Below, in pieces: positions 108 through 37,421 of a stretch of DNA of 64,000 bases. The notes beneath the pieces are model-generated. The model did no database searches. It had not been told where the DNA came from and was given only the letters and a program-made list of their open reading frames with translations. The stretch spans positions 992,001-1,056,000 of the forward strand of contig JAQOWU010000008.1 of assembly GCA_030867685.1 (NCBI GenBank), read 5' to 3'. Position 1 is the first letter of the stretch, and every line of letters starts with the position of its first letter. This DNA is from Wickerhamiella versatilis. Lineage: Eukaryota. A program made the position numbers and the translations under genes.

Positions 108-1874
108 TTAAACGCTGTGATCGATATCCTCGACACTCAGCTTGTGGGATAGGCTAGAAGATGAACCTGTGGTTTTTGCTGTATCTCCTGAAGCTGGGGT
201 AGATTTCGAGGGGGATATGATACCTTTACGGAGATTACTTAGGTTCTCCTTGACCAAATCCATGGTTCGCATTTCAAAGATGTCGTCAATTTCTTCCAAG
301 GTCTTTCCTTTTGTTTCAGGCATGAACAATAGCTGGTAGAAAAACCCAAGAATGGCTAGGCCACCATAGAATCCCCAGGTGAGACCCGTATACTTCATTG
401 CTGTAGACATTCTAGTGAAGTTATACGTTACAATCCAGTTCCACAAAAATACGGAAGTGGAGCAGATGGCCATCCCTTGTGCGCGGGTACGTAGGTTGAA
501 ACTTTCTGCCGGAACAACCCAGGTAAGACAGGCATAAGATCCAAAGAACCATTCATATAGAATCATTCCGGTGAAATAGACACCCATTGATGCTCTTTTA
601 CCACTGGGGTCATTGTCCCAGTCAGTGGATTCCTGCTTCAAGTAACCGATACCTACAAGCATAAGGCCGAAGAAGAATAGAAGAATGTTTTGGGCCCACA
701 CACGCCGACCAAACTTGTCCATATATAGAATGGCAGGAATGGCTCCGAGCCACAGGGCACCGCCACCTACCAAAGACATGGCATTCGCCTCCTTCGGTTC
801 GAAGTTCATCTTTGACATCAAGGTAGACATATTGTAGAGGATAGCGTTCACACCTGTCATTTGCCCGAGGCATTCCATTATGTTGGAATAGACCAGTGCT
901 CGTCTGTTGCGGGGAATAGTGAAGAGCTCGAACCAGCGCACATACCATTTCTCCTGGCTGCTAAGTTCAGTTTCCCGATTTGCAGTTTCTCGCATTTCAA
1001 GATATTCGAGGAGTGCTTCTGGCTGGTTGACATCGCGTAGTTGCTTCCACACATGCCAGCCTAAGCCAGCCTTACCTTTCGACACTAGCCATCTTGGTGA
1101 CTCGGGAAGGAAAAGGAGACCAATAAATAGAATGGTCGAAAAAACCAGTGAAGATCCGAGCATGTATCTCCAGCTTCCCTTGACGTCGAAAAATATGCAA
1201 CCAATCGAATAACCTAAAACCTCGCCGAATGCAATGTTAAATTGATACATCGAAACTAGATTTCCACGAACATCAGGAGGAACACATTCCGAGATGTAAA
1301 TACCGACACATCCACCTTCGATACCAACACCAACGCCTAAAATAAATCTTCCGGCGAGCAACATCCCAACGCTTCGAGCTCCAGCACAGAGCCCTGCTCC
1401 CAAAGTATACCAGAGACAAGAAATGATCAAGGAATTCCTTCTTCCGAAGAAATGGTTAAGTGGCATCATCATCATCGATCCTCCCATGGCTCCTAGCGGC
1501 ATTAGTGAACTCACGAGGGATTGATCGTCATCGTCCACTTTAGGAGCAACATAATCCTTTGCTCCATTGGTTCCTGTATGATAAGCACTCGCACCACTAA
1601 TGACGGACTGGTCAATACCAGAAAGAATTCCTGCGAACGATGCAAATACTCCGAGTGTAATGACAAGCTGCTTTGTTGACTTGAACGTAACCGGAATACG
1701 CTTTGTTAAAAAACGCCACCATAGAGTTTCTCCTGCCTTCTGCTCCTTAGCCTCTTCGTCAAGGTCAGCAACGCGTTGCTGGAGGTCTCCATGGTTCATA
1801 TTTGCAAACTGTAGCTCATCGAGCTTTGGCTCGGGATGCTCAAAGTGATCAACAACAGCGAATTTCTCTTCCAT
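108..1874 (-). CDS. FSY1: MFS sugar porter, fructose/H+ symporter Fsy1-like
   Basis: 588 aa with about 12 hydrophobic segments and sugar-porter motifs (FGRR, GRFILGVGVG, PESPRWL, QMTGVNAILY, PETKGKTLEEID). N-terminal LGVFASFAGILSGIDQSVISGA resembles the Fsy1 subfamily as recalled. Confidence 0.75.
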   Translation of the reverse strand: MEEKFAVVDHFEHPEPKLDELQFANMNHGDLQQRVADLDEEAKEQKAGETLWWRFLTKRIPVTFKSTKQLVITLGVFASFAGILSGIDQSVISGASAYHTGTNGAKDYVAPKVDDDDQSLVSSLMPLGAMGGSMMMMPLNHFFGRRNSLIISCLWYTLGAGLCAGARSVGMLLAGRFILGVGVGIEGGCVGIYISECVPPDVRGNLVSMYQFNIAFGEVLGYSIGCIFFDVKGSWRYMLGSSLVFSTILFIGLLFLPESPRWLVSKGKAGLGWHVWKQLRDVNQPEALLEYLEMRETANRETELSSQEKWYVRWFELFTIPRNRRALVYSNIMECLGQMTGVNAILYNMSTLMSKMNFEPKEANAMSLVGGGALWLGAIPAILYMDKFGRRVWAQNILLFFFGLMLVGIGYLKQESTDWDNDPSGKRASMGVYFTGMILYEWFFGSYACLTWVVPAESFNLRTRAQGMAICSTSVFLWNWIVTYNFTRMSTAMKYTGLTWGFYGGLAILGFFYQLLFMPETKGKTLEEIDDIFEMRTMDLVKENLSNLRKGIISPSKSTPASGDTAKTTGSSSSLSHKLSVEDIDHSV

Positions 1875-2000
1875 GGCCGAAAGATTTCTAACAAACAGGT
1901 TCTGGTGTTTGGGTGTGCTCTTTAAATACTGAAGGAATTTGGAAGTTGGGAACCAGAGTCATTATGCCCTTAAAATTCTCCTTAGTCATTGCAGAAAATC

Positions 2001-2021
2001 CCCCACTTTTTGAATGTGGAG
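2001..2021. promoter_or_regulatory. Two Mig1/CreA-type SYGGRG sites upstream of the sugar transporter
   Basis: CCCCAC plus T-tract at 2001-2011 (AAAAAGTGGGG on the minus strand) and GTGGAG at 2016-2021. TATTTAAA on the minus strand at 1921-1928. Confidence 0.45.
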
Positions 2022-2871
2022 TGGATAGGTTACTGCATAAATTTGCATAGCACGAGCACACGAATTCGACTAATTCTTATCGATAATAACTTTTTAACAA
2101 TTATTTTAGCTGAACCAGGCCTTTTCCACTGGCAATAAGCTGTGAAAAAAAGCTCACAGGGCAAGGGCTGATACGAATACGTATAATCAGCGATCGCCAC
2201 AAATATTGAGGCACGCGAAGTTTTTCCGTTAGAATGCCCGGAGACGCGGGAAAATTTTTGCAAGCGTCGCTAGTTGATCGAGCTTAGTAAATCCTGCCAT
2301 TGAGCTCCTGAACTCTCGGATATTCCTGTGCCCAGGTTTTCCTACGCGACAGACATGCATGGCTAAGGGTTGATGTGCTTATGGTCATTGGGCCTTCTGG
2401 AATTCACTGATCTTTCCATCCCGGGTCAAATCCGTTCCGAACATTAATTATCCGGAAGTGTTGAATTGATAGAGGGTGGATTATCTATTCCAACCCTGTC
2501 AGTATACTCTTAGACTCGACACTAGTTCGCACTGCTTGTCTAAAATATCTCTTTATGCTCGTATACAGGAGTCTCAAGGACGTTCAGGCTAATATATATT
2601 GGGTATTTTTAGCTTGCTGCGGGTCTTGACAAAAAAAATAAATCAATGGTAACAGTCAGTAGGCAATTTCGACCACTGAAATCTTATTTGTCAAGTATAA
2701 CGAATAGTCTTGTTTAGGCAAAGTATCCGTTTTCAACAACCGTAGCTAATCAAGTAGGGATACCAGTGGGCTTGATTTGTCAATCGCTTTCTGTTTCTAA
2801 ACAAGGAAGGCTCAACTCTAGTCTTTCTATTATCAGTACACTTTCCCGTATCTCTTGTAGACTCTAAATGA

Positions 2872-2878
2872 TATAAAA
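2872..2878 (+). promoter_or_regulatory. TATA box of the secreted repeat protein gene
   Basis: TATAAAA about 50 nt upstream of ATG 2930. Confidence 0.5.
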
Positions 2879-2929
2879 GTGACATCGAATCAGTGGAGTA
2901 TCCTTGCCTGAGCCTGGAGCGTGTGTCTG

Positions 2930-4756
2930 ATGAAGTACGCTCTGTCCACCCTCGTAGCAGCATCGGTGGTCCTCGGTGCGCCGACCTACGATATCAAATC
3001 GAATGGAGACAAGTTGACAGTGAATGAGGTCCTTGGAGATTTTACTGATCTCAGAAATGAAGGGTCTCACTTGAAAGTTAAACGCCAACTCCAGCAAGGC
3101 TATAACAATTATGGCGGGTATCCTGAACATCCTGGTTATGGCGGCGGCTATGGTGGTTATGGTGGACAACAGTGTCAATGTGGTCCACCCCCTCAGCAAC
3201 CACCACCTCCTTCTTATCCTCAATGTCAGTGTCCACCACCACAGCAACCTCCTCCCCCGCCTCCCCCTCAACAATGTCAGTGTCCACCACCACAACAACC
3301 CCCTCCCCCTCCTCCTCCTCAGCAATGTCAGTGTCCACCACCACAACAGCCCCCTCCCCCTCCTCCTCAACAACAGCAACCCCCACCACCATCTCATCCC
3401 GAATGCCAATGTCCACCTGAATCATATGGCGGCTATGGTGGATATGGATATTACGGAGGAAATCCAGGTAATGAGCGACGTGGTGGCGGTGGCTGCGGTG
3501 GCGGTAGCGGTGGTAGCTGCGGCGGCATTGGTGGCAGTAGTGGTGGTGGCTGCGGTGGCGGCCGCGGTGGCGGCTTCGGTGGCGGCTTTGAAGGTGGTGC
3601 TGGTGGTGGTCCTTTCGACTGCGACTTCAATTTTGGCGATCTTTGCGATCCCAATAAACTCAATCGCTACGCATGCAATGATGGATGCGGAAGATGGTTT
3701 AAGTGGCTCAATCCATTTGTCTATCTCAAGGCCCTCGAAGATTTCTGCCCAGGTCTGCTTATCTCCACTCCACAGGGTGAGCGCGGTATTTGCGGACCTG
3801 GTAGCTATCCTCCAGCAGGTGGATGGGATAGTGCAGGTGGAGGCAGTAGTAGTTGCGGTGGCCTTGGTGGTGGTGGCGGTGGCGGCTGCGGTGGCGGCGG
3901 TAATCGCAACAATCAAGGCGGCTACCAGCCATACGGCTATGGCGGCTACTATCCGTACTATAACTATGGTTATGGCTATAGTACCCAGGCTAATTCAAAC
4001 CAAGGCAATAGCGGTAACGCCGACAACACGCAATTGCTACAGTCTTCATGCCAGCAGGCTCAGCCGGCGCAAATGATACAATCGTGCCAGCCAGTGCAAA
4101 TGAATAGTTGCGGTACCGACAGCGATAATTCTCAAGCCATTGAGGGCCCTAACAGCGCTGCTCAAAATCCGCAATTGCCCCAGCCAACACAAATGGACTC
4201 CAATCCCTCCCCACAAACGGGTTCTAATCCTTCAGCAGACCAGGGATACCCTCAGCCTCAAGAACACGAAGAGAGCTACAATCAACCATTACCCCAAACT
4301 CATCCCAGGCCTCAAGAACAGGCATACCAACGCGGTGGATCTTCCCAAGAAGAACAACGAACCCACGACATGCAGCGCGGCCAGGAGGATCGACGTATGC
4401 ACGACGGGCAGCGTTCTCAGCAGCGTATACAGGAAGCTCAACGTATTGATGAAGCTCAGCGCGCCCAGGGAGCGCAGCGGGGCCAGTCAAGACCAAGCAC
4501 AAATCACAACGAGCTGGAGCCGTCAAACGATTCCCAGAAGTATGAAGCTGATCAATTGCGTACTCAGGATATTCCTGTTCGTGATGATGAGCCCTACTGG
4601 ATGCAGCCCGTTGCTATGGAAGACATCTATGGTAACCGATGGATTCTTGCAGAACAAGAAGAAGAGAAGCAAGGTAACCAACATGTCACTGAGAATATAA
4701 TGCGTGATTCAGTATACCCTCCAAGTGCGCATTGGGATCACAGGTATCTTCCATAA
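2930..4756 (+). CDS. Secreted Pro/Gln/Cys-, Gly/Cys- and Gly/Tyr-rich modular protein, function unknown
   Basis: First ATG is 2930 (the ORF track starts at GTG 2921). Signal peptide MKYALSTLVAASVVLGA, dibasic KR (3080-3085) and RR (3476-3481), low-complexity blocks, no GPI-type hydrophobic tail. Confidence 0.85.
   Translation: MKYALSTLVAASVVLGAPTYDIKSNGDKLTVNEVLGDFTDLRNEGSHLKVKRQLQQGYNNYGGYPEHPGYGGGYGGYGGQQCQCGPPPQQPPPPSYPQCQCPPPQQPPPPPPPQQCQCPPPQQPPPPPPPQQCQCPPPQQPPPPPPQQQQPPPPSHPECQCPPESYGGYGGYGYYGGNPGNERRGGGGCGGGSGGSCGGIGGSSGGGCGGGRGGGFGGGFEGGAGGGPFDCDFNFGDLCDPNKLNRYACNDGCGRWFKWLNPFVYLKALEDFCPGLLISTPQGERGICGPGSYPPAGGWDSAGGGSSSCGGLGGGGGGGCGGGGNRNNQGGYQPYGYGGYYPYYNYGYGYSTQANSNQGNSGNADNTQLLQSSCQQAQPAQMIQSCQPVQMNSCGTDSDNSQAIEGPNSAAQNPQLPQPTQMDSNPSPQTGSNPSADQGYPQPQEHEESYNQPLPQTHPRPQEQAYQRGGSSQEEQRTHDMQRGQEDRRMHDGQRSQQRIQEAQRIDEAQRAQGAQRGQSRPSTNHNELEPSNDSQKYEADQLRTQDIPVRDDEPYWMQPVAMEDIYGNRWILAEQEEEKQGNQHVTENIMRDSVYPPSAHWDHRYLP
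3170..3418 (+). repeat. Coding 51-nt tandem repeat (QCQCPPPQQPPPPPPPQ) x4 plus a degenerate fifth unit
   Basis: Units start at 3170, 3221, 3272 and 3323 (caatgtcagtgtccaccaccac is identical in the last three). ECQCPP at 3401. Confidence 0.9.
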
Positions 4757-6275: not shown

Positions 6276-8636
6276 CTAGCCCATGGCCCGCCATGGGATT
6301 TCCGCTATGAGAAGTGGCATTTTCACATTGCCATCATCTGAAATCGAAACTTGGTGATTTCTGAAGCTCTCATACAGTGATACAGCAACATTCCATTCCG
6401 CAAGAGAGCGACCACCATAATTCCAATGTGCTAAGTCATTCTCAGCACTGCCCGTCCCAGCCGCGTGTAAGCTTTTGTCCGACAAAGACTGCTGACCGGG
6501 AAACCGCGGCAACGATACTCGTCTTTGTTCAGGCAGCAACGTTTGGATTGGCGCCAGCGCAAATCTGTGCTGAGGTGGTTGAATATCAGGCTGAGGTTCG
6601 CATAAGACATTAGGAAGGGGAAGATTGGTTAGGGATCTTCTATGCTTTGTACTGTCATCTGGTGGGTCCCTGGGTCCCACCGACGGTGCTTTGTCGCTTT
6701 TGAAAAATTTACGAAGATTATCCAATGACAAAGAAGACCAACGTCGACGCCCTTCTGGTTCAGGCTCGTTGGACGTATTCTCCTCCGTAGAAGTGGGAAG
6801 CGACCACCGCCTGCCGATAGGGTCGTGTGAGGGTGCACACCAGTATGCAGAGTTGTCGAATATATCAAATTGATAAGTGCGAGTCTGGCCGCCAGAAGTG
6901 AAAAATGAAGATTGCTGAATAGGAACAATGGTTACCTGGCACTTAGGCAGGGGCAGTGATGGGGTCGCTTCAGGAGGAAAGCTAGCCATAGATGCGAGGG
7001 CCCTGCATCTTATGTAAGTGACTAGAAGCCGTTGCTTGAGCAAATCCTGTGATTCCATGCGACAGGCCAGCCGATAACACAGAAGTCTGTGATAGTAACT
7101 CCGGACGAGAGGGCTCCAGTGACAGAAAAGCTTTTGCCATGTGTTAGCACTTAAAGTCCACCGCGTCACTTGATCAGCCGCATCGTCAGTAAAAGAGGGC
7201 CAGGCGTTGAATATCATGGTCAATGCTCGAATCTCTGAATAGCAATTATTCGAGGTAAGCATTCTTTGTGCAACAGCAATCCACCACTCCCATGATATAG
7301 ACTGCGACCTTGTCTGATCCTGTGTCTTGGGATGTTCCAAGGTAACGCTGGCAGCCCATTCTTCAACGAGATCACATATCTTACCGCATGCATCAGCATG
7401 GTACACATTAATGCTTGCTGCCACAGCCTGCAAAACCTGATCAAATTGTTTCACAAAACTGTGGAAATAAACCAGGCACTGATCATCATTGTGCAGAACT
7501 TCGCGAATCACCTTAAACAACTTTAGCTCGTTCACATTTCGAGCCGTGACTGTCCCATTAGATAACCCGGGGGCTAATGCATTTACCGTTATCGCTTTCT
7601 TCCTATTCGTCGGACTTGTATGTCGCACGAAGTAGTCCAAGAAATTCACCTCCGAGGCCAGGAGCAGTGTCCATCCAGGTGCGCATTTGTGCAAGGAGAC
7701 TTGTGAATCCATTGGAAGACACACCTGGCATACCAAGGAGCAATAGTGTTTCAGGAAAGAATTGAACACGCCAGAGTCTGGCTGCCAGTACTTGCTCCAG
7801 GAGCTGTCATGCAACCATGCGAATTTAGAATCCCTACATTCTGGCGGCGGTGTAGACATCGCAGTCCTCATCCCAACCAATGGCAGCAGATGATCAGGGA
7901 CAGATTCCAGATTATTGCAAGTACATTGCTCTTCATCTTCCAACCTGGCAATTAGTCTATCAATACACCTTTGTGGGACACGTAAAAGCCAGATAAGCTG
8001 TATGGCAACCCCTGGAACGAAAAAGTAGCAGTATGCCAAGACCTTACCGGTAAAAGCGGCAATGGCAAGCGGGATTGCCGTGCCCGATGATACCTTGTGA
8101 AGCATGAACTCTCCAGTGCTGACCAGCAGCCGCAGATACTGGGCTGATGGTGCCACTAGCCATTCTGGCCGCGACATGATGCCAGAGAGAGCTTCATAAA
8201 ATGCATTTCGATCGCTCCCGGTGATATTGTCCGTACGAAGGTCCACTAGCAGTCGTTCCCACCATGCCTCTAGAATGGTAAGGCGGGATGCTACTTGACT
8301 GGATGCAGGTAGAATGAGGGAGCTTTCGCGACGGAGGAACGGAAGCAGGCTAAGCCGAAGAATGTTAGCGGCTGAGGCACCCCTCTGTGACGTATACTTG
8401 CGGAGGTATCGCTGAAGCCGGATAAATTCATGGTCGTTGTCATTGCCTTTGGCCACCAAGGATAGCCTGTCGTCATGAAACCAGAAGAAAGAACTACGGG
8501 ATGACGTGCTTGATTCGGGTGTCTCTGTAAATTCGCTAGCCCCATCGCTGGACAATGACCTTGGAGGAGAGGGTGGAGGCCCATTGCATACGGTCGCGGC
8601 CGTCTTCTTGGGCGATTCGCGGTTGAATAGCCGCAT
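6276..8636 (-). CDS. DUF1765-family protein (Ahk1-like)
   Basis: Helical protein with motifs AANILRLSLLPFLR, GKVLAYCYFF and FCHWSPLVRSYYHRLLCYRL. First ATG 8636; the ORF is open to TTG 8717. Confidence 0.7.
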   Translation of the reverse strand: MRLFNRESPKKTAATVCNGPPPSPPRSLSSDGASEFTETPESSTSSRSSFFWFHDDRLSLVAKGNDNDHEFIRLQRYLRKYTSQRGASAANILRLSLLPFLRRESSLILPASSQVASRLTILEAWWERLLVDLRTDNITGSDRNAFYEALSGIMSRPEWLVAPSAQYLRLLVSTGEFMLHKVSSGTAIPLAIAAFTGKVLAYCYFFVPGVAIQLIWLLRVPQRCIDRLIARLEDEEQCTCNNLESVPDHLLPLVGMRTAMSTPPPECRDSKFAWLHDSSWSKYWQPDSGVFNSFLKHYCSLVCQVCLPMDSQVSLHKCAPGWTLLLASEVNFLDYFVRHTSPTNRKKAITVNALAPGLSNGTVTARNVNELKLFKVIREVLHNDDQCLVYFHSFVKQFDQVLQAVAASINVYHADACGKICDLVEEWAASVTLEHPKTQDQTRSQSISWEWWIAVAQRMLTSNNCYSEIRALTMIFNAWPSFTDDAADQVTRWTLSANTWQKLFCHWSPLVRSYYHRLLCYRLACRMESQDLLKQRLLVTYIRCRALASMASFPPEATPSLPLPKCQVTIVPIQQSSFFTSGGQTRTYQFDIFDNSAYWCAPSHDPIGRRWSLPTSTEENTSNEPEPEGRRRWSSLSLDNLRKFFKSDKAPSVGPRDPPDDSTKHRRSLTNLPLPNVLCEPQPDIQPPQHRFALAPIQTLLPEQRRVSLPRFPGQQSLSDKSLHAAGTGSAENDLAHWNYGGRSLAEWNVAVSLYESFRNHQVSISDDGNVKMPLLIAEIPWRAMG

Positions 8637-9479: not shown

Positions 9480-10475
9480 ATGGCGTCGTTGGAGGAGGTT
9501 CTGCCGTTTCTAGCTGATCCCAAGCAGGAGGCTCGGCAACTTGCAGTGGATGCTATTCTACCATTTACCAGATCCTCCGCGGGTCATGTATGGGAGTTTA
9601 AAGCTGACGATTTGGCTCCAGTAAAGCAACTGAAGCTATTAGCATCCTCGCCCGAAAAACCCATTAAGCAAAAGGCTTTGACTGCTTTGGTGAATCTTAC
9701 AGAGGACAAGGATATTAGATCGCTAGTTGCCCAGGATATTATCACTTACGCTGAGTGGGTAGTATCCCCCTCTGAGGAAAATAAGGGCCTAGTATGTATG
9801 CTGCTGGCAAATCTTAGCCATGATCCGGCAGTGAAAAATCTGATGGGAGCTCCATTAGAGGTTTTGATATCCATTTTGGTAAAGGATTTATCTCCAAAAT
9901 TGGACTTTCTCACCTTTCTTTTCGCGGAGACTGCGAGAAGGCCTGCCACTGCATCGTTCTGGACACCTGACGTCATGGGACCCTTGTTTCCCCAGCTTGT
10001 GCTGGGGAGCTTGCAGCGCCGATCCGGGATTGCAGCTACCGTCAAAAATACATTGTTTAGTGTGCAAATGCACGAAAAACTGGGCAAAGATAGCAGGCTT
10101 ATTGAGTACATCATGATTGCACTTAAGGGATCGGAGCCTCTTGACGCGGATGATGTGAAGCAGCTCCCTGAGATAGTAAAAGATCAACTCACACCAAAAA
10201 AGCGCAGAGAAACAGATACTGAGCAAATCCTCTTACTGTTGGAATGCCTTCTTTTAATGTCAACATCTCGTGCTGGTCGCGAGGCATTGAGGGAAAAGAA
10301 GGCCTACTTCATTGTGCGCGAAGTTCATTTGGCCATTGATAATGCTGAGATTATGGAGACATGTGAGCGCATAGTCAATCAAATCATGAGAGGGGAGCCC
10401 GAGCCCGCGCCACCTCAAAATATGATTGAAAACGAGGACGACGACGATGAGGACGCTGTCATTGAGGTTCTTTAA
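9480..10475 (+). CDS. HGH1: Hgh1, eEF2 chaperone (ARM repeat)
   Basis: LEEVLPFL N-terminus, RRSGIAATVKN, LECLLLMSTSRAGREALR, acidic tail ending IEVL. Confidence 0.9.
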   Translation: MASLEEVLPFLADPKQEARQLAVDAILPFTRSSAGHVWEFKADDLAPVKQLKLLASSPEKPIKQKALTALVNLTEDKDIRSLVAQDIITYAEWVVSPSEENKGLVCMLLANLSHDPAVKNLMGAPLEVLISILVKDLSPKLDFLTFLFAETARRPATASFWTPDVMGPLFPQLVLGSLQRRSGIAATVKNTLFSVQMHEKLGKDSRLIEYIMIALKGSEPLDADDVKQLPEIVKDQLTPKKRRETDTEQILLLLECLLLMSTSRAGREALREKKAYFIVREVHLAIDNAEIMETCERIVNQIMRGEPEPAPPQNMIENEDDDDEDAVIEVL

Positions 10476-11107
10476 GAGTCGAAAACGAATTCATTGAGAT
10501 TTAAGGATTGCCGTGCGGATCCACAATCGATCTCCTTCGACGCTGAGGTGTCTTTTTCCTGGTTTAGGTCCTCCCGCAAAGCTTGCAGGTGATGAAAACG
10601 AGAAACTAAATGATGATGCTGGAGAAAGAGCTGGTCGTAGACCAAAAGAACATTTGTAGTGCTCTTACAGGCCATCAACGGACTTAATTTTGAGAGGAGG
10701 AGCCATTTGGATATCTTAAACTGGCGAGCGGCCCGTAGAATAGCGGTCTGGGCACTCACATCAACTTGACATGAGGAATGAACGTCAGCATTTCCATTAT
10801 TAGTTCTTGGAGACTGCTCAAAATCCTCCAATGTCTCGCTTTGTTCTGGTGATAGTTCCCGTTGCCAATCCCGAAACGTCCTCTTTAAATTAACCAGCTC
10901 CGGTGAGACCATCGCTGATGTGCTTATTGCTAGCACCTGAAGATGTAGCAGGGAGAGCTCCTGTTCCATAAGTGCATTGGTTTTTGCAATTAGGTCATGG
11001 GCACTTAGGATCACACTAATGCCCTCTTGAATCTTTTCGAAGTCATCGTATCCTAGAATCTTGCGTAAAAAGTTGAGCTCTTGTTCGATAAATACCGCGC
11101 TAATCAT
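10472..11107 (-). CDS. Hypothetical helical protein
   Basis: 211-aa ATG ORF filling the gap between HGH1 and CAX4. No recognised motif. Confidence 0.6.
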   Translation of the reverse strand: MISAVFIEQELNFLRKILGYDDFEKIQEGISVILSAHDLIAKTNALMEQELSLLHLQVLAISTSAMVSPELVNLKRTFRDWQRELSPEQSETLEDFEQSPRTNNGNADVHSSCQVDVSAQTAILRAARQFKISKWLLLSKLSPLMACKSTTNVLLVYDQLFLQHHHLVSRFHHLQALREDLNQEKDTSASKEIDCGSARQSLNLNEFVFDS

Positions 11108-13819: not shown

Positions 13820-14839
13820 ATGGAGCAAGAAATAAGATCAGCTGACCATCACGTCCCCGCCGTCTGGCCTGGAAGTTCCCCGCATATTTCTCACGATCAC
13901 AATGTCTTTGACTCGAAGCATGGACTACTTGAGGACTCACAATATATTTGCGAGTTTCGACTGGCGGCATTTGCAAGAGCGTTTGATGAACTGATTATGG
14001 AACGTGCAATGTGGAGTCGAGAGACTCTCGAGCTTCGTAAAAACTTGTGCGCCAGTGAGTGTGAGATTGACTCTCTGAAAGTAGATATCGCAAGGAAGGA
14101 GTCAAAAAACCAAAAATCCTCCGCCATTGAGCTGAAAGCTGATAAGCTGCAGCCACTAATGGAAAAACTCGACATGGCAAATAAAGAGCTTCGCAAAGCA
14201 CGGGATAACAGTATGGAAACCCAGGTCACCCTCCTCAATACTCAAATTGAACTCTCTGAATTAGAGGATGCACATAAAGAACTTCGCCAGAGTCTTAACA
14301 AGTGTGAGACTGAGCTAGAGATACTGCGATCCGACAGGAAGTCGCTTGAGTATGAGCTTAAACAGGGGAGTGACACTGACTTAAGTGAATTGAAGGCCAA
14401 AGAACTTCAGATAGGCATGATATCTGCTCTGGAAGAAGCACAGGAAGCACGGGCTGAGTATGAAAAAGCATCTCAACAGAACCAAGTGCTGAAGGAACGA
14501 AGTGATATATTGCTGAGTTGTTTGTATGATGCCCTCGAATCCACTGTTTCCCTCCGCAATGTGCTTGGCAGGATAAGTACGAGCACGGGTGCAAAGGACT
14601 CTTGCCCGCGTGACTCTACGGATAGAATTGACGAAACCTCGGCCATTCAAACAGCGAGGCAGATCGTCGAGAAATATCTGATCAAGTGCAATGTGACAGT
14701 CCACTTGGTACAAGCATCTCTTCAGGATATTTCAGACCATGCCACGCCTAAAATCAAGGAATTAGTGAACATCTGTCGTAGGAGTCTTAGCGATATTGAC
14801 CCGGATGTTAAGGGCGTTTGTCACGACATCTATAGCTAG
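13820..14839 (+). CDS. Hypothetical coiled-coil protein
   Basis: Long E/K/L heptad-rich region. First ATG 13820. No family recognised. Confidence 0.7.
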   Translation: MEQEIRSADHHVPAVWPGSSPHISHDHNVFDSKHGLLEDSQYICEFRLAAFARAFDELIMERAMWSRETLELRKNLCASECEIDSLKVDIARKESKNQKSSAIELKADKLQPLMEKLDMANKELRKARDNSMETQVTLLNTQIELSELEDAHKELRQSLNKCETELEILRSDRKSLEYELKQGSDTDLSELKAKELQIGMISALEEAQEARAEYEKASQQNQVLKERSDILLSCLYDALESTVSLRNVLGRISTSTGAKDSCPRDSTDRIDETSAIQTARQIVEKYLIKCNVTVHLVQASLQDISDHATPKIKELVNICRRSLSDIDPDVKGVCHDIYS

Positions 14840-28843: not shown

Positions 28844-29536
28844 ATGCCGAAATCAAGCAGAAATCAGGTCGTGTCCCTTACACGTACGGAAAAGAAAGGG
28901 AGAGAAAATAAAGAGCGTATAGCTGATGATATCAGAGCGTCTATGGACAAGTATGCTTATATTTGGGTCCTAAATGTCCAGAACATGCGTAACAATTTTC
29001 TTAAAGAGATCCGCCAAGCTTGGGAGGGCTCGCGTATACTATTTGGACGTACGAAGTTAATGCAAAAGGTGATTGGCAGGAGCGCTGAAGATGAATATCT
29101 TGACAATGCTCATGAACTCTCGAAAATTATCGTTGGTGATGTTGGTCTTCTATTCACAAATGAGGAGCCTGAGGTTGTGAAATCCTGGTTTTCCTCCTAT
29201 GTTAAAACTGACTACGCACGATCGGGCCAAGTATCACCAATTGACTTCGTTGTCCCAGAGGGAATAGTTTATTCCACTGGAGGTCAACAACCTATTGACG
29301 ATGATGTTCCTTTGGCCCACTCTCTGGAATCAACATTACGCCAGCTTGGCATGCCGACACGCCTTGTAAAGGGAAAGATAATTTTGTCGGAGCCCTACAC
29401 AGTTTGTAAGAAAGGTGATGTTCTCAACAGCAAGCAAGCACAGCTTCTTAAGCAATTCGGTTGCCCATGTGCAGAATTCAAAATAAAACTTTTAGGACTG
29501 TATTCCAAGAACAGTTCGGAAACCGAAGTATTTTAG
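28844..29536 (+). CDS. MRT4: Ribosome assembly factor Mrt4
   Basis: MPKSSRNQVVSLTRTEKKGRENK, NMRNNFLKEIR, GDVGLLFT. Confidence 0.95.
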   Translation: MPKSSRNQVVSLTRTEKKGRENKERIADDIRASMDKYAYIWVLNVQNMRNNFLKEIRQAWEGSRILFGRTKLMQKVIGRSAEDEYLDNAHELSKIIVGDVGLLFTNEEPEVVKSWFSSYVKTDYARSGQVSPIDFVVPEGIVYSTGGQQPIDDDVPLAHSLESTLRQLGMPTRLVKGKIILSEPYTVCKKGDVLNSKQAQLLKQFGCPCAEFKIKLLGLYSKNSSETEVF

Positions 29537-29565
29537 GCATATCATTGATTATATAATAGATCTTT

Positions 29566-29970
29566 ATGGCTCGAGGAAAAGATCTGGATATAGGATATCC
29601 ACCAGATGATTTGGATAATAATGAAGTCATTTCTAAAGTACTGGTTAATAAAGGCACCAGCTTTGAGGTAGAGTTAGCCCCAAGTCATATTCAGAAAGCT
29701 ACGGCAGCGCTTGAAACAGATGAGCCACAAACGACTCTTGTCGTAAGTTTGTCTCCAGTACTTCGTAACAAGTACTTTATTCGCCGTGGTGGGTTAGTTG
29801 TTGTTGCATTAGAAGATCGTGGAAAAGTCAAAGGAGAAATAATAAACTTGATTGCTGATACTAGAGAGTGGCAAAAAATGCCGTGGTGGCCATCTGAATA
29901 TGTCGAGAAACGAGATACCGTTGCCCTCGATCTGCCACCATCGGATTCCGACTATGAAGAGGAGTATTGA
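29566..29970 (+). CDS. eIF1A-domain (EIF1AD-like) S1/OB-fold protein
   Basis: LRNKYFIRRGGLVVV...GKVKGEI...WQKMPWWP...DLPPSDSD pattern. Confidence 0.8.
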   Translation: MARGKDLDIGYPPDDLDNNEVISKVLVNKGTSFEVELAPSHIQKATAALETDEPQTTLVVSLSPVLRNKYFIRRGGLVVVALEDRGKVKGEIINLIADTREWQKMPWWPSEYVEKRDTVALDLPPSDSDYEEEY

Positions 29971-30320
29971 AGGAGACTATCTACCAGTGGTGACGAATGC
30001 GAGTCACCAAATCGAATTTCAAGCCCTGCCGATGCAAATGCTCCAAAGTATCGGGTAATCATATCGCTTCTAGTTGATTTGCGCCGCTCCAACCAGCTGA
30101 GCAGTCCATATATCACTGTTTTCTGTTCAGAGGGTGATGCATTCGTCCACGCCAACTTAAGCGCGTCTTCCCCTGTGGAGGCAAAATTAACCTCTACTTC
30201 ACGAGCCCTACTGCCGATATTAATCACTGTTTCCTCAGATAATGTCCAAAACTCATTCTCTGTACCTATGAAGATGATTCGAACAGGTGACAGGTGAAGA
30301 GCCTCCGCAAGTGTAAGCAT
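29952..30320 (-). CDS. Small alpha/beta protein, possible Shu1-like Rad51 paralogue
   Basis: 122-aa ATG ORF filling a gap. Alternating strand/helix pattern (RIIFIG, VEVNF, TVIYGL, EIRF). Confidence 0.5.
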   Translation of the reverse strand: MLTLAEALHLSPVRIIFIGTENEFWTLSEETVINIGSRAREVEVNFASTGEDALKLAWTNASPSEQKTVIYGLLSWLERRKSTRSDMITRYFGAFASAGLEIRFGDSHSSPLVDSLLQYSSS

Positions 30321-30368
30321 AAAAATATAAAGTCTTGCAAATAATGGAATTATGTTATCTACAATATT

Positions 30369-31475
30369 TTAGTGATTCATCCCATCCGATTCGGGAGAAG
30401 ATATGTCGTTACTTTCGTCTGTGTCACTGCCACTTGTATCGCTTCCAAAAGATTCCTCTGTATCACCCTCTATTTGTTCACTGTGGGGCTCTTGTCGTTG
30501 CTGTGAATAATATTTCTCAAGCTCTTTGGCTGCCTTTCGATCAACACCTGATGCATCGGCCTCAAAATCAAGTCTAGCTTTGCGCTGAACTTCGGACCAT
30601 TTTGGATAGTTTCCAGAGACCCCGAAACGTGCAGTAAAGTAATGTCTTATCGAGTCCACGTCGCGCTCAAAGTATTCCTGAGCATTTGGGTGATCTATAG
30701 ATACACACTGTGGGAAGTCGATGATTACTGCTTCAGACTCGGGAGAATCAGCATCATAATCCTGAACTAAAATATTGAACTCATTAAAATCGCAATGGAT
30801 GAGACCGTGATCTGCGAGTCTAGCAATGAAGTCCATCAACAATGCGTACAATCTCTCTGGGTCTGGAACATCTCGCAGTTTCCTAAGCAATACGCCGTCT
30901 ACTAAGTCCATAACCACGCAGTGACGACTGTAATCAATCGGACGAGGAACACTGAATCCTGCTTCATACAATAGCCGCATATACGTGAATTCTTTTTCTG
31001 CACTTAATTTTGACAAAGTTAACCAGTTGACAGTTGTGTTACCTTTTTGATAATCACGCGATTTTCGGGCAGCTCCTCTGAACGAGACGCGGCCGAGACG
31101 ATGGACTTTTAAACAGAGCTGCTCAGCTTTTTCATTAGCAACAGTGTAAATATCCGATTCTTTGCCAATTCCTATTTGGTGGCCAACTGCCGCTATCGAA
31201 TCCCTGGTAACAAGGGATTTGAGGGCTAAATAATCGAATCCATGATAGGTCAAACGCCAGCCATCATAATTTTGACGCGGATCACGAGTGATAAGATTGA
31301 TTTTCGATAAAATTGAAATTGACTTTTGAAGAAGTGATTTATTTCGTACACCTGAAAGAGTTAGAAGCAGTGAAGTTGGCACAATTTCGTGATTCTTTGA
31401 TCCATTCTCCATTGCCTGTAAAACCTTGAAATCTGCTTTGGACAAGTAACGCATGTGCGAAGTCTCCAAGCGCAT
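30369..31475 (-). CDS. RIO2: Atypical kinase Rio2
   Basis: Winged-helix N-terminus, IGIGKESDIY, IHCDFNEFN, IIDFPQ. Confidence 0.96.
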   Translation of the reverse strand: MRLETSHMRYLSKADFKVLQAMENGSKNHEIVPTSLLLTLSGVRNKSLLQKSISILSKINLITRDPRQNYDGWRLTYHGFDYLALKSLVTRDSIAAVGHQIGIGKESDIYTVANEKAEQLCLKVHRLGRVSFRGAARKSRDYQKGNTTVNWLTLSKLSAEKEFTYMRLLYEAGFSVPRPIDYSRHCVVMDLVDGVLLRKLRDVPDPERLYALLMDFIARLADHGLIHCDFNEFNILVQDYDADSPESEAVIIDFPQCVSIDHPNAQEYFERDVDSIRHYFTARFGVSGNYPKWSEVQRKARLDFEADASGVDRKAAKELEKYYSQQRQEPHSEQIEGDTEESFGSDTSGSDTDESNDISSPESDGMNH

Positions 31476-31558
31476 GATCTCAGACCTTCTTTTTTTCTTC
31501 TAAAGCAGAGATTTAAAAGTATTTGTCAGTTAGTGCACGTGATCTATCCCGGTATATC

Positions 31559-31567
31559 AGTGGCAAA
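31559..31567 (+). promoter_or_regulatory. Rpn4/PACE-like element upstream of UFD4
   Basis: AGTGGCAAA in the RIO2-UFD4 divergent spacer. Confidence 0.45.
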
Positions 31568-31723
31568 AATGGTTCTTAATGAAGCGCTGGGAGTGGTGGA
31601 GCTTCAAATTTTATTTTCTGTAATAATAGGTGAATAAATATACCGTGCATGTAAATGCCATCGCCATTATGCGTCAATACCTATTTTCGCGCAATTGCTG
31701 CCTAAGCGAGTGCTAAATCATTA

Positions 31724-34700
31724 ATGCCTGGCACTGACGACGAGCACGATTTGGGAGAAATGAGCGAGTTCGGGGACGAAGCCCAAGCGAGTGAACAGGA
31801 AGAGGGAGATGAAGATGAAGACGAGGATTTCGAGGATGAAGCCAGTCACTTCATTGAAGCCCTGCAGAACGCTGGCTTGCGATTTCCGGCACTCCAAAGC
31901 CTAATGGATCCTGGCATTGCTACCTTGATACAGTCTCTGCAGAGTCCTGAAACTGCCATTGTTCTGGATGGTTTGCAGCAGTTGAGCAGTATGTTGCTCA
32001 TGCCACGTGAAGCTGCTTTGATGCTGTTCCCCACGCGGCAAATAAGTCAAGAGCTTATAAGACTTATGACTGCTGAAGAGCAGAATCCTGAGGTGCTTGT
32101 AATGACAGCTAGGGCAGCTGCACAATTGCTTGATTCGGGTGTCCCTGGTGCGATGGACTCTCTCGTCCGAGATGGGATTGTTGGTGGCCTCAAACACCTT
32201 TTTGAGAGTAGTATCGGATACATTGATGTTACAGAACAGGCTGTAGTTGTTCTGAGGCGTGTTGCTGCAGAGCATCCAGCGAATGTGCTTGAAGGAGGTT
32301 GTCTTCCACCAATATTGGGGACCATCGACTTTTTTAACATTCACATACAGCGTACAATCCTTGATGCCGTCTCAAACTGCTGTGGTGCTATAACTGACAG
32401 TAATTGGGCTGCGACAAAACCTTTGGTCCCTTTGCTTGAGCAACATCTTACCACCACTCCTGAAGAACTTGCAGATATGGCCGCAGGCGCGCTCAGTCAA
32501 ATAATAGTTGCAGTGGCACGTAGAGGAGGGCAGAATGAGGCTGCAAGTATCGTTGGAGAAAATACTTGGCGTGCGCTGGTCGCACGCATTATGCCTGGTA
32601 CGCCTTTTTTAGGAAGGATTCTACGAGCTCTCTCTCTACTTGCCGGTATTCAGGAAAGAGCTGCTGCTCTCATATCCGAATGTCATATTGCATCAGTTGT
32701 TCAGCGTGCATTAACAGGTGGTGAGGGAGATGCCTTCAAGACGCTCCTACACTGTCCTAAAGATACCCTGGTGGGCTCTTTGAAGCTTTTTGTAGCGTTA
32801 ATGCCGGTGCCTGGTAGCCATTTTCAATTCTCAGGGCCCTTCAGGCGCCGTGAATCGCGGGAGTTTATTCCACCATCGGGATTTGATGCATATGCTACGA
32901 CTGTAGTGGATACGGTAAGCCAAATATATAATGCCAGTGCAGATACACATGTCCGGGAGTTGACATTGTTTGTATTGCTTCAGATTACATGGTACTCTCC
33001 AATTGATATTCTCGTTCAGTTTCCTGAGCAAGTTGGTCAATTTGCTACCTCAGTAATTTCTCATGCTGATAGCAAACTACTTGTAGTTGGAGGTCTTGAC
33101 ATCGCTTATAATTTAATATCACGTGCGTCAAGCCGATTTGTCGAAGTTTTTGAAAATATAGGCCTACCTGCAGAGCTCAGTGAGTTACAATCAAGTTCTG
33201 TGGAACCTCACGGCACGTTCCAGAGTCATGATGATCTAGAGCCGGTCTCAGCTTTTATGGTATATCAAATTATGGCTTATTTCAATCTGAAAAGCAAGGA
33301 TTATCCAAGATTACATGGATATGTCGAGGCTCTTAGGAGTGGCGAGATTGAAGGGTTAAGTAATTTAGATAGCATCTTGCACGAATGCTCGACGCCTGAG
33401 CTACTACGTCTCGGAATTTTCGACGTAATTGCTGATATAGGATGTCAGAATGCATCCACACCTTCCGTTTTCATGGAACATATACGCCCTGCGTTACCGA
33501 GACTTATTGCAACTTTACAAGATGCACTAAGTCGTTCTGAACGATTTGAGGCACTATCCTCATCTCACTCTGGATCTGTCCCTTCCCTGCGTAATGCCTT
33601 AACCCGATTTGTTAAGGTCAGGCTACAAAGTCGAAGAAATGCGGAAGTTGGCTGGGCAGTTAGTGTACAGGCTATAGCTGCGCTTGAAGTTCTCGAAGAG
33701 TTTTGCCGCTCAAGACTTAGTCTTCGTACTAGGTTCTTGCCGGTGGTTGGCGAAGATGATCCTGAAAGTGAGGAGGAAGAAAATGGGGGTAGGTTTGGTT
33801 CTCAAGAGCATTTCCGCTTTTTCTTCAATAACCAGCCTTTACCACATGATATGTCTGTATTAGGAGCTGTATATCCTCAATTCTCGCGAGATATGAATGA
33901 GGCCGTTATTCCGAGAAGTATATGGTCGGAGACATTCACATTACAATTCGAAAGAGGTAGACCAGAGCAACGGGTACCAGCGACGGAGGCAGAAGAAGTA
34001 GATGTTTGGCATAGTGTACCTCACAGTTTCGGGGCGAATCAGCATCTGGCAGTTACTATAAGACTACTGCGTGTAATTGCGACATTAAATGATGCGTACC
34101 CTATACTATCACCACACGAATTCTTGAATTCAAAACTTACGACAAAGCTTAACCGCCAACTCGAAGATCCATTGATAGTTGTAGGAGCTATCCTGCCTCA
34201 ATGGACATTTGACACCGTTCATCTATATCCGTTCCTATATCCATTCGAGACACGTTTGCAATTTGTAAGGTCAACATCCTTTGGATATTCACGATCCATT
34301 TCCAGATGGTCTACTGAGTCGTCTGAGGTGGGCCGTCCAGTAACTCAGAAATACCGAATTGGTAGGGATGGTCTACTTCAGGGAGGTCTTAAGCTCCTCG
34401 AAATGAGCTCTGCAAGCCCTGCTATTGTCGATATAGAATTTTATGGTGAAGTTGGTACTGGATTGGGTCCCACCCAAGAATTCTATGCTGACATTTCTCG
34501 TGAGTTCGCTTTGCAAAAGGATATGTGGCGTGATGGGGATGGGTTGTTTCCCCGTGCGTATGCGCAAGATGACCCCAGACTCGAAAATGTGTGCGTTAAG
34601 TTCAAAGGACTCGGACGATTGATAGCAAGAGCTCTTCTTGATCAGAGATTGCTGGATTTTCGGTTCAACCTAGGTTTCTTTTCAGTGCTGCTTGGATTGC

Positions 34701-35395
34701 CATCGGCGAATATTTTGGATCTCGTCGACCCAATGCTCTTGAAGTTTTTGAATGAGCTACCCAATCAGACTAATATTGCTTCTTTAGGTCTCGATTTCAC
34801 TTTACCAGGCACCAACCTGGAGATGTTGCCTGCTGGAGCAGACCAGGACCTCACACCTAATCGTGTATTTGAATATATTTACCTGGTGAAGGATTGGACG
34901 CTCGAAAGAGGCATTCGCCACCAGCTAGATGCTTTTGTCTCTGGCTTTTCGGCAAGCGTCTCAATTGATGCCCTTCATGCATTTAGTCCTCACGAGCTGG
35001 TTATGCTGTTTGGGGGCGGGGGCAACGATGCAGACTGGTCCATCCAAACCTTGCAGGCAGTTATCAAGGCAGATCATGGCTATACAGTAGATTCTGAGCC
35101 AGTAAGAACCCTAGTAAGGGTAATGTCTGCCCTTTCTCGTGAGGAAAGACGTCAGTTTCTACAATTTATGACTGGCAGCCCCAATCTCCCTCTAGGTGGG
35201 TTTAAGGCACTTCAACCTCAATTTACTGTAGTCTTCAAGCATCCTGAGAATGACGCTCAGCCAGATCTTACGTTGCCATCAGTGATGACCTGTGCTAATT
35301 ACCTCAAACTTCCAGCCTACTCCTCTGAGGATGTGCTTCGAAGACAATTACGTACAGCTATCTCAGAAGGAAGTGGTTCTTTCCCACTTTCTTAA
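31724..35395 (+). CDS. UFD4: HECT E3 ubiquitin ligase (Ufd4/TRIP12)
   Basis: ARM region YIDVTEQA, NSKLTTKLNRQLEDPL, EVGTGLGPTQEFY, catalytic LPSVMTCANYLKLP. Confidence 0.94.
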   Translation: MPGTDDEHDLGEMSEFGDEAQASEQEEGDEDEDEDFEDEASHFIEALQNAGLRFPALQSLMDPGIATLIQSLQSPETAIVLDGLQQLSSMLLMPREAALMLFPTRQISQELIRLMTAEEQNPEVLVMTARAAAQLLDSGVPGAMDSLVRDGIVGGLKHLFESSIGYIDVTEQAVVVLRRVAAEHPANVLEGGCLPPILGTIDFFNIHIQRTILDAVSNCCGAITDSNWAATKPLVPLLEQHLTTTPEELADMAAGALSQIIVAVARRGGQNEAASIVGENTWRALVARIMPGTPFLGRILRALSLLAGIQERAAALISECHIASVVQRALTGGEGDAFKTLLHCPKDTLVGSLKLFVALMPVPGSHFQFSGPFRRRESREFIPPSGFDAYATTVVDTVSQIYNASADTHVRELTLFVLLQITWYSPIDILVQFPEQVGQFATSVISHADSKLLVVGGLDIAYNLISRASSRFVEVFENIGLPAELSELQSSSVEPHGTFQSHDDLEPVSAFMVYQIMAYFNLKSKDYPRLHGYVEALRSGEIEGLSNLDSILHECSTPELLRLGIFDVIADIGCQNASTPSVFMEHIRPALPRLIATLQDALSRSERFEALSSSHSGSVPSLRNALTRFVKVRLQSRRNAEVGWAVSVQAIAALEVLEEFCRSRLSLRTRFLPVVGEDDPESEEEENGGRFGSQEHFRFFFNNQPLPHDMSVLGAVYPQFSRDMNEAVIPRSIWSETFTLQFERGRPEQRVPATEAEEVDVWHSVPHSFGANQHLAVTIRLLRVIATLNDAYPILSPHEFLNSKLTTKLNRQLEDPLIVVGAILPQWTFDTVHLYPFLYPFETRLQFVRSTSFGYSRSISRWSTESSEVGRPVTQKYRIGRDGLLQGGLKLLEMSSASPAIVDIEFYGEVGTGLGPTQEFYADISREFALQKDMWRDGDGLFPRAYAQDDPRLENVCVKFKGLGRLIARALLDQRLLDFRFNLGFFSVLLGLPSANILDLVDPMLLKFLNELPNQTNIASLGLDFTLPGTNLEMLPAGADQDLTPNRVFEYIYLVKDWTLERGIRHQLDAFVSGFSASVSIDALHAFSPHELVMLFGGGGNDADWSIQTLQAVIKADHGYTVDSEPVRTLVRVMSALSREERRQFLQFMTGSPNLPLGGFKALQPQFTVVFKHPENDAQPDLTLPSVMTCANYLKLPAYSSEDVLRRQLRTAISEGSGSFPLS

Positions 35396-36972: not shown

Positions 36973-37421
36973 CGATTATCGGTAATCTCTAGAAGAATCA
37001 GTGTGAGTTTTGCTTCTCATAAATGCTAAATATTGAAATGTTTGGATATATCCACTGAGGTATTTTAGAAGTATTCGTGGAATTCTCGCAGGGGCAGGTT
37101 GTACAGTGCAATCAGGTCTTATATCCTTGGATGATCTAGAACAAGGATGTCATTTTTAATTTTCATGAAAGTGTCTAACACGCTTCAACATAAAAAAAAT
37201 ATAAAGATAGAATTTTTATGAATCTACTCCCGCCTCAAAGAAAGTACATTAATTTTGGTAGGATCATGAATTTAAGACTCTGGTAGTATTAATCCTTATT
37301 TTCTTTCCCTCCTAAACACACTTGAGCAGTAAGGTCCATGTGGACTAGACGAGTAGATACAGATCTCGTGATCTTACGTGATTTCACTTATCCCTCCGTG
37401 ACTGGGATATTCAAAAACACA

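Follow-up and report, generated by a model that had tools for sequence, protein, structure and literature searches.

Introduction

Fungal walls are usually described as polysaccharide combined with heavily mannosylated, Ser/Thr-rich proteins that are held in place through glycosylphosphatidylinositol (GPI) remnants or PIR repeats. Proteins of the PIR type carry a signal peptide, a Kex2 propeptide, internal Gln repeats and a C-terminal Cys-containing part, and have no GPI anchor. Here we analyze a gene in a 64,000-nucleotide stretch of yeast DNA (contig JAQOWU010000008.1, positions 992,001 to 1,056,000; hereafter the window, to which all nucleotide positions refer). Its predicted product is a modular, low-complexity protein of secreted type that contains no known domain and has one detectable, fragmentary relative, and for which we tentatively propose a role in an extracellular matrix or coat.

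In the nematocyst wall, minicollagens polymerize through disulfides between short Cys-rich parts (PMC4863159, PMC6989532), and polymerization by the same means is described for CPP-1, a polyproline protein, and for Cnidoin, an elastic, Gly-rich and silk-like one (PMC6910907). Among fungal proteins, Hwp1 of Candida albicans is described as beginning with a signal peptide, a Kex2 propeptide and Cys-containing Gln/Pro-rich tandem repeats that are substrates of host transglutaminase, and as largely unstructured in AlphaFold (PMC9273023). Plant glycine-rich proteins (GRPs) of classes I and II are secreted and built on (GGX)n repeats, with a Cys-rich C-terminus in class II (PMC5298957), while HyPRPs place an N-terminal Pro-rich repeat domain before a Cys-motif domain (PMC2216038). 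Silencing of the Phytophthora loricrin-like protein PiLLP impairs the formation of thick-walled oospores (PMC5298957), indicating that Gly-rich proteins can be of consequence for spore development in microbes. Judged by analogy of design, the protein described here is closest to the nematocyst wall proteins in working principle and to the N-terminal part of C. albicans Hwp1 in fungal layout. A keyword search of the open-access literature returned analogues only, with no described equivalent yeast protein.

Gene structure and modular anatomy

Low-complexity DNA of the kind that makes up this gene leaves further frames open too, so the reading frame of the single open reading frame (ORF) listed in Table 1 needs support of its own. 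Such support comes from the 17-residue repeat units at residues 98-114, 115-131 and 132-148, in which the DNA has changed at synonymous sites with the peptide preserved (pairwise synonymous/non-synonymous codon differences of 5/0, 5/1 and 2/1). It comes also from the relative, P0012, which aligns at E 3e-39 with residues 391-607 and has the same end position. On these coding-sequence grounds, the predicted gene is real in this frame. Three overlapping ORFs in other frames, at 3111..4076 (+), 2864..3397 (-) and 3078..3425 (-) and of 321, 177 and 115 amino acids (aa), have monotonous translations, V/A/H/L-rich or R/L/W-rich, and look like by-products of repeat DNA rather than genes. Across 20 other ORFs of the window, 16% of the Leu codons are CTG, which makes CTG reassignment unlikely and the standard genetic code appropriate.

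The composition of the protein is far from chance, as is the 51-bp tandem repeat at 3183-3391 that encodes the three 17-residue units. Among the 608 residues there are 101 Gly, 81 Pro, 75 Gln, 35 Tyr and 24 Cys, the Cys total thus being even, and no two Cys are adjacent anywhere in the chain. The predicted mature protein of 556 residues has Gly, Pro and Gln as its commonest residues, 33 Tyr, all 24 Cys and a net charge of -22. Its modules (Table 1) follow one another in a strikingly symmetric order, Gly/Tyr - [CQC-polyproline] - Gly/Tyr - RR - Gly/Cys - [six-Cys core] - Gly/Cys - Tyr-rich, after which come a Gln-rich tail, predicted to be disordered, and a conserved end module. The earlier note on this DNA, made from the sequence alone, had listed the modules in this order, and a script run over the translation recovered every one of them.

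Within the first cassette, the first Gly/Tyr block contains [GS]Y[GS] motifs at residues 69, 73 and 76, and the repeat region that follows is 44/84 Pro and 24/84 Gln, with Pro runs of 3-7 and five CQC motifs at 82, 99, 116, 133 and 159. The first Gly/Ser/Cys tract, where tandem repeats were also reported at 3480-3606, carries GGGGCGGG at residue 185, GGGCGGG at 205 and Cys at 189, 197 and 208. The core that it precedes is the only complex-sequence stretch in the middle of the protein, its six Cys lying at 231, 239, 249, 253, 273 and 288 (spacings of 7, 9, 3, 19 and 14) without any CC or CXC pair. The earlier note had described the last part of the protein as a long Gln-rich tail, which holds as to composition (41 of the 236 residues at 373-608 are Gln), but this tail is heterogeneous, comprising a Q/N/S/P-rich region with three Cys, a predicted charged helix and the conserved end.

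Secretion is likely, because the sole hydrophobic segment is N-terminal, a KR pair lies 35 residues on, the Cys count is even and no hydrophobic stretch is found at the C-terminus. The top Kyte-Doolittle 15-residue window of the protein, with a value of 1.81, covers residues 3-17; all five top windows fall in the signal peptide, and signal cleavage probably occurs after G16 or A17. The last 30 residues are hydrophilic, with a mean Kyte-Doolittle value of -1.37, and by this hydropathy measure there is no GPI-type tail. Both the signal-peptide and the GPI calls were made by direct inspection and Kyte-Doolittle hydropathy. Ser and Thr together make up 56/608 residues of the whole and 48/556 of the mature protein, with a module maximum of 19/118, and hence there is no Ser/Thr stalk; N533 heads the single N-x-S/T sequon. 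The anatomy of a secreted, Kex2-processed, non-GPI, modular low-complexity protein is thus supported by predicted sequence features, including the lack of stalk and GPI tail that the earlier note had called.

Table 1. Features of the gene and its upstream region, with positions in the window; functional names are predictions.
Feature	Position	Strand	Basis and remarks
Coding sequence P0001	2930..4756	+	Single ATG-to-stop ORF, 608 codons plus stop
Putative signal peptide, residues 1-17	2930..2980	+	N-terminal hydrophobic stretch MKYALSTLVAASVVLGA; inspection and hydropathy
Putative propeptide, residues 18-52 (35 residues)	2981..3085	+	Ends LKVKR, dibasic Kex2-type site K51-R52; sequence
Gly/Tyr block 1, residues 53-79	3086..3166	+	11 Gly and 6 Tyr of 27; composition
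Cys-Gln-Cys/polyproline-Gln repeat region, residues 80-163	3167..3418	+	Motif and repeat scan
Gly/Tyr block 2, residues 164-181	3419..3472	+	8 Gly and 5 Tyr of 18; composition
E-R-R (dibasic R183-R184), then Gly/Ser/Cys tract 1, residues 182-229	3473..3616	+	Sequence, tandem repeats
Complex-sequence six-Cys core, residues 230-296	3617..3817	+	Sequence
Gly/Ser/Cys tract 2, residues 297-325	3818..3904	+	Cys 309 and 320, GGGGGGGCGGGG at 313; sequence
Tyr-rich block, residues 326-352	3905..3985	+	10 Tyr at 332-350; composition
Q/N/S/P-rich region, residues 353-470	3986..4339	+	Cys 374, 386 and 394; composition
Charged Q/R/E/D/H segment, residues 471-516	4340..4477	+	Contains R488-R489; predicted one long helix
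Conserved C-terminal module, residues 541-608	4550..4753	+	Trp/Tyr-rich; alignment with P0012
Intergenic region, 1,055 bp, shared with divergent sugar-transporter gene	1875..2929	.	Presumed promoter; ORF list and Pfam
TATA-box-like TATAAAAG	2872..2879	+	51-58 nt upstream of ATG; read from sequence
Sugar transporter (Pfam Sugar_tr)	108..1874	-	Divergent, upstream neighbour

Structure prediction with AlphaFold2, run without an alignment, gave the full-length protein a mean predicted local distance difference test score (pLDDT) of 43.3, with 470/608 residues below 50, and most of the chain is accordingly predicted to be disordered. In this model the propeptide contains a low-confidence helix at residues 32-43, the six-Cys core forms three or four short helices within residues 235-272 at pLDDT values of about 50-64, and the charged segment forms a helix at 473-514 with block values of 69-88. 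Folded alone, the six-Cys core reached a mean pLDDT of 41.4.

Sequence relatives and constraint

To place the protein among known families, we searched domain, structure and sequence collections. No Pfam-A family matched the whole protein by hmmscan at E ≤ 0.01, and with the threshold relaxed to E ≤ 10 three pieces of the protein, together with P0012, matched only the plant GRP family (PF07172), non-significantly (E 1.3, 10.1 bits against a gathering threshold of 30 bits, residues 53-79 only). PDB sequences yielded six chance-level matches at E ≤ 10, the best at E 0.39, and the ESM Atlas gave no usable match for either the whole protein or the core (residues 226-300). Four non-repetitive pieces of the protein, searched for paralogues within the window, found only themselves. 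An exhaustive phmmer search of 1.84 billion representatives, without length limit, returned five proteins at E ≤ 0.001, of which one, P0012, is a true relative; the other four were judged, by reading their sequences, to be low-complexity matches. This bears out two expectations of the earlier note, which had anticipated that any likeness to animal proteins would be compositional and had treated orthology to a characterized fungal family as counting against its reading: no such orthology appears in Pfam, PDB sequences or the phmmer library.

P0012 is a singleton fragment of 186 aa from a Logan source (phmmer E 9.3e-30). It aligns to the C-terminal 218 residues of the window protein, starting at the equivalent of M391; its source is probably a species at moderate distance in which the gene has the same genomic surroundings. 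Word-indexed searches agree: a query with the C-terminal 218 aa scored 1/65 candidates, P0012 again, and a query with the core region 228-312, among protein lengths of 334-1064, scored 0/25.

Identity along this alignment is unevenly distributed. Within the module at residues 541-608, 50/68 positions are identical, including a fully identical block of 30 residues (545-574, nucleotides 4562-4651) and a shared aromatic-rich end, ...YPP.A.WD.RYL. In the rest of the aligned tail 46/150 positions, about 31%, are identical; a locally conserved patch is shared at about residues 399-421, and P0012 lacks about 30 residues (about 488-517), so that much of the predicted charged helix is missing from it. 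As far as the predicted sequences go, the strongest measurable constraint therefore lies in the C-terminal module and not in the Cys core, conservation here meaning a two-sequence alignment in which P0012 covers the tail only and neither the N-terminal modules nor the six-Cys core. The earlier note had overlooked this module, the most constrained element of the predicted protein. Neither Pfam nor PDB sequences yielded a match to it or to the six-Cys core. Selection focused on a terminal non-repetitive module is a pattern of structural proteins that assemble.

The same alignment admits a different explanation, namely that function resides in the C-terminal module and possibly the core alone, for instance as a lumenal or secreted binding protein or as a secretory-pathway factor that is chaperone-like or forms condensates, and that the repeats of a fast-evolving orphan are merely tolerated as spacer. 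The divergence of the tail outside the module and its gap, between species whose Gsh1 proteins are 76% identical, speak for this reading, as do the prediction of disorder over most of the chain and the lack of any family assignment by Pfam or phmmer. Against it, the repeat units remain protein-identical while their synonymous sites diverge, a sign that selection acts on the repeat sequence itself, and symmetric Gly/Tyr and Gly/Cys blocks around two cores would be unlikely as neutral spacer. On balance we consider this explanation doubtful.

The reach of these negative results depends on what the collections contain. An exact look-up of the window protein, at full length and in two forms starting at internal Met residues, found it absent from a collection of 15 billion proteins, as were two of the ORFs in alternative frames, and neither phmmer nor either word-indexed search returned a self-match. 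The 786-aa DUF1765 ORF at 6276-8636 is also absent from this collection. Four other neighbouring proteins are exactly present, from Logan or Logan/ENA sources only, which indicates that the genome is unannotated; the absence of the window protein beside the presence of its neighbours indicates that the gene callers behind the collections miss this gene and that their calling is patchy. A missing homologue thus counts as a real negative for annotated fungal proteomes but not for unannotated yeast genomes, which limits to the former any verdict on the lineage-specific status inferred in the earlier note, and results of this kind are weaker for this genome than they appear. That the collections lack this protein and hold several of its neighbours implies that such genes are systematically missed in unannotated yeast genomes, and apparent orphan status calls for caution.

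Proposed role and alternative explanations

Our preferred reading, to which we assign a probability of roughly 0.42 on the basis of sequence features, is that the protein is an extracellular, cross-linkable matrix or coat protein that is Kex2-processed, non-GPI and poorly glycosylated. A Kex2-type protease would trim the prepro-protein behind K51-R52, export would take place with little glycosylation and no GPI anchor, and the mature chain would behave as a block copolymer. In such a polymer the Pro runs may form short, stiff polyproline-II rods whose flanking C-x-C pairs would act as intermolecular disulfide staples, with the Gly/Tyr and Gly/Cys blocks as flexible linkers on either side of the rods and of a small, globular six-Cys core. 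Insolubility would arise through intermolecular disulfides among the 24 Cys and possibly through oxidative coupling of the 22 Tyr in the three Gly/Tyr blocks. The disordered Gln-rich tail would end in the conserved aromatic-rich module, which may be the specific part, serving in docking to the wall or a partner or in assembly control, while the low-complexity blocks would supply bulk and mechanics. Candidate sites are an outer wall layer, an ascospore coat or a pellicle or biofilm, among which sequence alone cannot choose.

The choice of cross-links differs in one respect from the earlier note, which had named isopeptide bonds beside disulfides and dityrosine. The mature protein contains 75 Gln and 5 Lys, three of the latter in the six-Cys core, and because of this imbalance Gln-Lys self-linking is unlikely and that part of the claim is poorly supported. 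Disulfide and tyrosine coupling fit the predicted sequence better, and the protein could at most serve as a Gln donor to another protein.

Its Cys might alternatively be thought to work as free thiols, in an extracellular buffer whose C-x-C and Gly/Cys tracts bind copper or other thiophilic metals or in a redox sink at the cell surface. The five C-Q-C motifs and the Cys scattered through Gly/Ser tracts would suit this function, and the C-x-C arrangement is reminiscent of fungal copper metallothioneins. Cys density is nevertheless low for a metallothionein (24/608), passage through the oxidizing endoplasmic reticulum favours disulfides, and Pfam returned no metallothionein match, so we regard a buffering role as highly improbable.

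Several observations weigh against a matrix or coat role. Known yeast wall proteins are usually Ser/Thr-rich and heavily O-mannosylated, and the window protein differs from them in this respect; by Pfam and hydropathy it offers no link to the wall either, with no PIR repeat, GPI signal or known carbohydrate-binding domain. Neither the six-Cys core nor the C-terminal module obtained a confident fold from AlphaFold2 without an alignment, and since the single relative is a fragment, conservation of the low-complexity modules and of the core lies outside the alignment. Bearing on the spore-coat option in particular, GNCRCAAAW, a middle-sporulation-element-like pattern, has 9 matches in the window against 10.1 expected, and given this chance level we attach no weight to the match at 2196-2204, some 730 bp upstream of the ATG.

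Three dibasic sites, one of them (RR183-184) exactly between the two symmetric cassettes, lie at module boundaries and raise the question of whether the protein is a polyprotein precursor. Processing at KR52, RR184 and possibly RR489 would split off a Gly/Tyr-CQC-polyproline piece (53-182), a Gly-flanked six-Cys domain and a C-terminal piece, at least one of which might work as a diffusible agent, for example a killer toxin or an antimicrobial peptide, or else as a surface peptide resembling repellents or hydrophobins. Kex2 processing is known from yeast killer preprotoxins and from Ustilago Rep1, nematodes release Gly/Tyr-rich antimicrobial peptides from precursors, and the predicted small, disulfide-rich character of the six-Cys core is like that of secreted toxins. 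However, the dibasic sites number only three and lack a repeated peptide-plus-spacer pattern, RR488-489 falls within the segment missing from P0012, and the strongest conservation, as far as it is visible, is in the C-terminal module rather than in the Cys core. No likeness to a toxin or peptide family emerged from Pfam, PDB or the library of 1.84 billion proteins; of the traits of killer preprotoxins, the window protein has dibasic sites, at which subunits would be released, and it shows no sequence relationship to a known toxin in PDB sequences or that library. A precursor of this kind is, in our estimation, rather unlikely.

A more ambitious form of the matrix or coat reading, in our view unlikely, would make the protein the scaffold of an undescribed, largely protein-based outer coat, of the ascospore or of the cell surface, in a Dipodascales-type yeast. 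Assembly would proceed as in nematocyst walls and cornified envelopes, with Cys-x-Cys disulfide exchange stapling the rods, Gly/Tyr elastomeric linkers hardened by tyrosine coupling, and the C-terminal module docking the polymer to the polysaccharide wall or triggering its assembly. If true, this would constitute a convergent, non-mannoprotein solution to fungal surface armour.

Comparison with described systems

Going by its predicted sequence, the protein is a member of none of the systems compared here, because the defining sequence feature of each was tested and found to be absent; likeness is confined to composition and design. With PIR proteins it shares a predicted signal peptide, a putative propeptide with a Kex2-type KR, internal Gln-containing repeats, Cys in the C-terminal part and the lack of a GPI signal. 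It has no PIR repeat by Pfam (whole protein at E ≤ 0.01, pieces at E ≤ 10) and a different Cys spacing, and the tripeptide D-G-Q occurs once only, at residues 492-494, in the segment 471-516 that is largely missing from P0012. Hydrophobins possess eight Cys with two CC pairs, whereas the window protein has no adjacent Cys and no hydrophobin match in Pfam. The eight-Cys motif of HyPRPs follows the pattern C..C..CC..CXC..C..C, which is not found in the six-Cys core, and no LTP-type Pfam match was obtained; HyPRPs and plant GRPs, from a different kingdom, have in common with the window protein a secreted plan of repeats plus a Cys domain. The Gly-loop and Pro/Gln/Cys-rich composition of loricrin and SPRR proteins is similar, as composition only, and the cornified envelope depends on Gln-Lys isopeptides, with both donors and acceptors, for which the window protein offers few Lys. 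PiLLP is described as having no signal peptide (PMC5298957), and the window protein has a predicted one.

Nematocyst wall proteins follow the same design logic as the putative CQC-stapled polyproline rods and Gly-rich linkers. Minicollagens contain a collagen Gly-X-Y triple helix and six-Cys CRDs, and by Pfam the window protein has neither, polyproline alone being present. No sequence relationship to nematocyst proteins was detected by Pfam or phmmer, and the likeness is at most convergent.

The N-terminal layout resembles that given for Hwp1 in C. albicans (PMC9273023), and the 75 Gln against 5 Lys amount to a donor-only profile. Both would be expected of an Hwp1-like adhesin module whose Gln/Pro-rich Cys repeats present glutamines to the transglutaminase of a partner organism or of an animal or insect host, so that the yeast or its secreted matrix becomes covalently fixed to a surface. 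Hwp1 continues into a Ser/Thr stalk and a GPI anchor, though, and the window protein lacks both of these means of attachment to the cell. Its description (PMC9273023) includes no Gly/Tyr or Gly/Cys blocks, the Gln-Pro repeats are there said to be confined to C. albicans and C. dubliniensis, and neither Pfam nor phmmer reveals any relationship between the two proteins. We therefore hold this possibility to be very unlikely. More generally, the hydrophobic GPI signal (by hydropathy) and the Ser/Thr stalk (by composition) that mark GPI-anchored adhesins of the Hwp1, Als and Flo types are both absent, and no Pfam family was matched, in agreement with the earlier contention that the protein is unlike classical yeast adhesins and mannoproteins.

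As a kind, the predicted protein belongs with extracellular cross-linkable structural proteins and is not a categorically new system; on present sequence grounds it is a candidate and not a discovery. Secreted orphans of this fast-evolving, low-complexity type are frequent among fungi, and the function proposed here is putative. A secreted yeast protein without GPI or PIR attachment would nonetheless suggest that extracellular layers are built or attached differently in a poorly studied, early-branching lineage, and polyproline/Cys staples joined to Gly/Tyr elastomer-like blocks would form a compact natural block copolymer of possible interest for materials.

Promoter and codon usage

Read directly from the sequence, TATAAAAG in the presumed promoter is TATA-like, and its position shortly before the ATG is a third line of support for the reading frame. 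In a codon index referenced to ILV5, the gene of an abundant enzyme, the gene scores 0.511, compared with 0.365-0.463 for 19 other ORFs. This ILV5-like usage is a weak hint of good expression, the index being driven in part by Gly codons; codon usage is otherwise ordinary for the window.

Genomic setting and host placement

The window consists of compact, intron-poor yeast DNA with housekeeping genes. Downstream, the neighbour of the gene encodes seipin, and further along lie genes for myosin V, PP2A-B56, uracil phosphoribosyltransferase, an Mrt4-like protein, Rio2, a HECT ligase, Gsh1, phospholipase D, La, Pol alpha subunit B, alpha-adaptin, ILV5 and Orc1. To place the host we used Gsh1, whose best named relatives among the matches listed are from Trichomonascus vanleenenianus (53% identity) and Blastobotrys adeninivorans (52%), followed by Lipomyces starkeyi (49%) and Tortispora (49%). 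A maximum-likelihood tree of this single gene, built from 25 sequences of which 24 were chosen from 120 listed matches to span taxa, puts the window on a long branch within a clade (support 100/99) that also contains Sugiyamaella, Trichomonascus and Blastobotrys. This Gsh1 phylogeny makes the host an early-branching budding yeast from near the Dipodascales, without a close annotated relative. The Gsh1 ORF itself (37338-39236) encodes 632 aa, and because a 98%-identical relative is shorter (604 aa, 96% query coverage), its first ATG may not be the true start.

Four further ORFs belong to no Pfam family: 10472-11107 (-), 13820-14839 (+), 39283-40680 (+) and 57291-58202 (-), of 211, 339, 465 and 303 aa. 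In the 316-aa ORF at 35561-36511 (+), an HSF-type DNA-binding domain is joined to a response-regulator receiver domain, in the manner of Skn7; the ORF is short for a protein of this kind, and its gene model may be incomplete. The Mrt4-like gene, Rio2 and the HECT/TRIP12-like (Ufd4-like) ligase occur together at 28844-35395. MRT4 and UFD4 are neighbours in Saccharomyces cerevisiae, and the grouping may thus be left over from a conserved gene order. Finally, a further candidate for an extracellular or vacuolar location is the 786-aa protein encoded at 53365-55725 (+), in which an N-terminal fasciclin domain spans residues 33-148.

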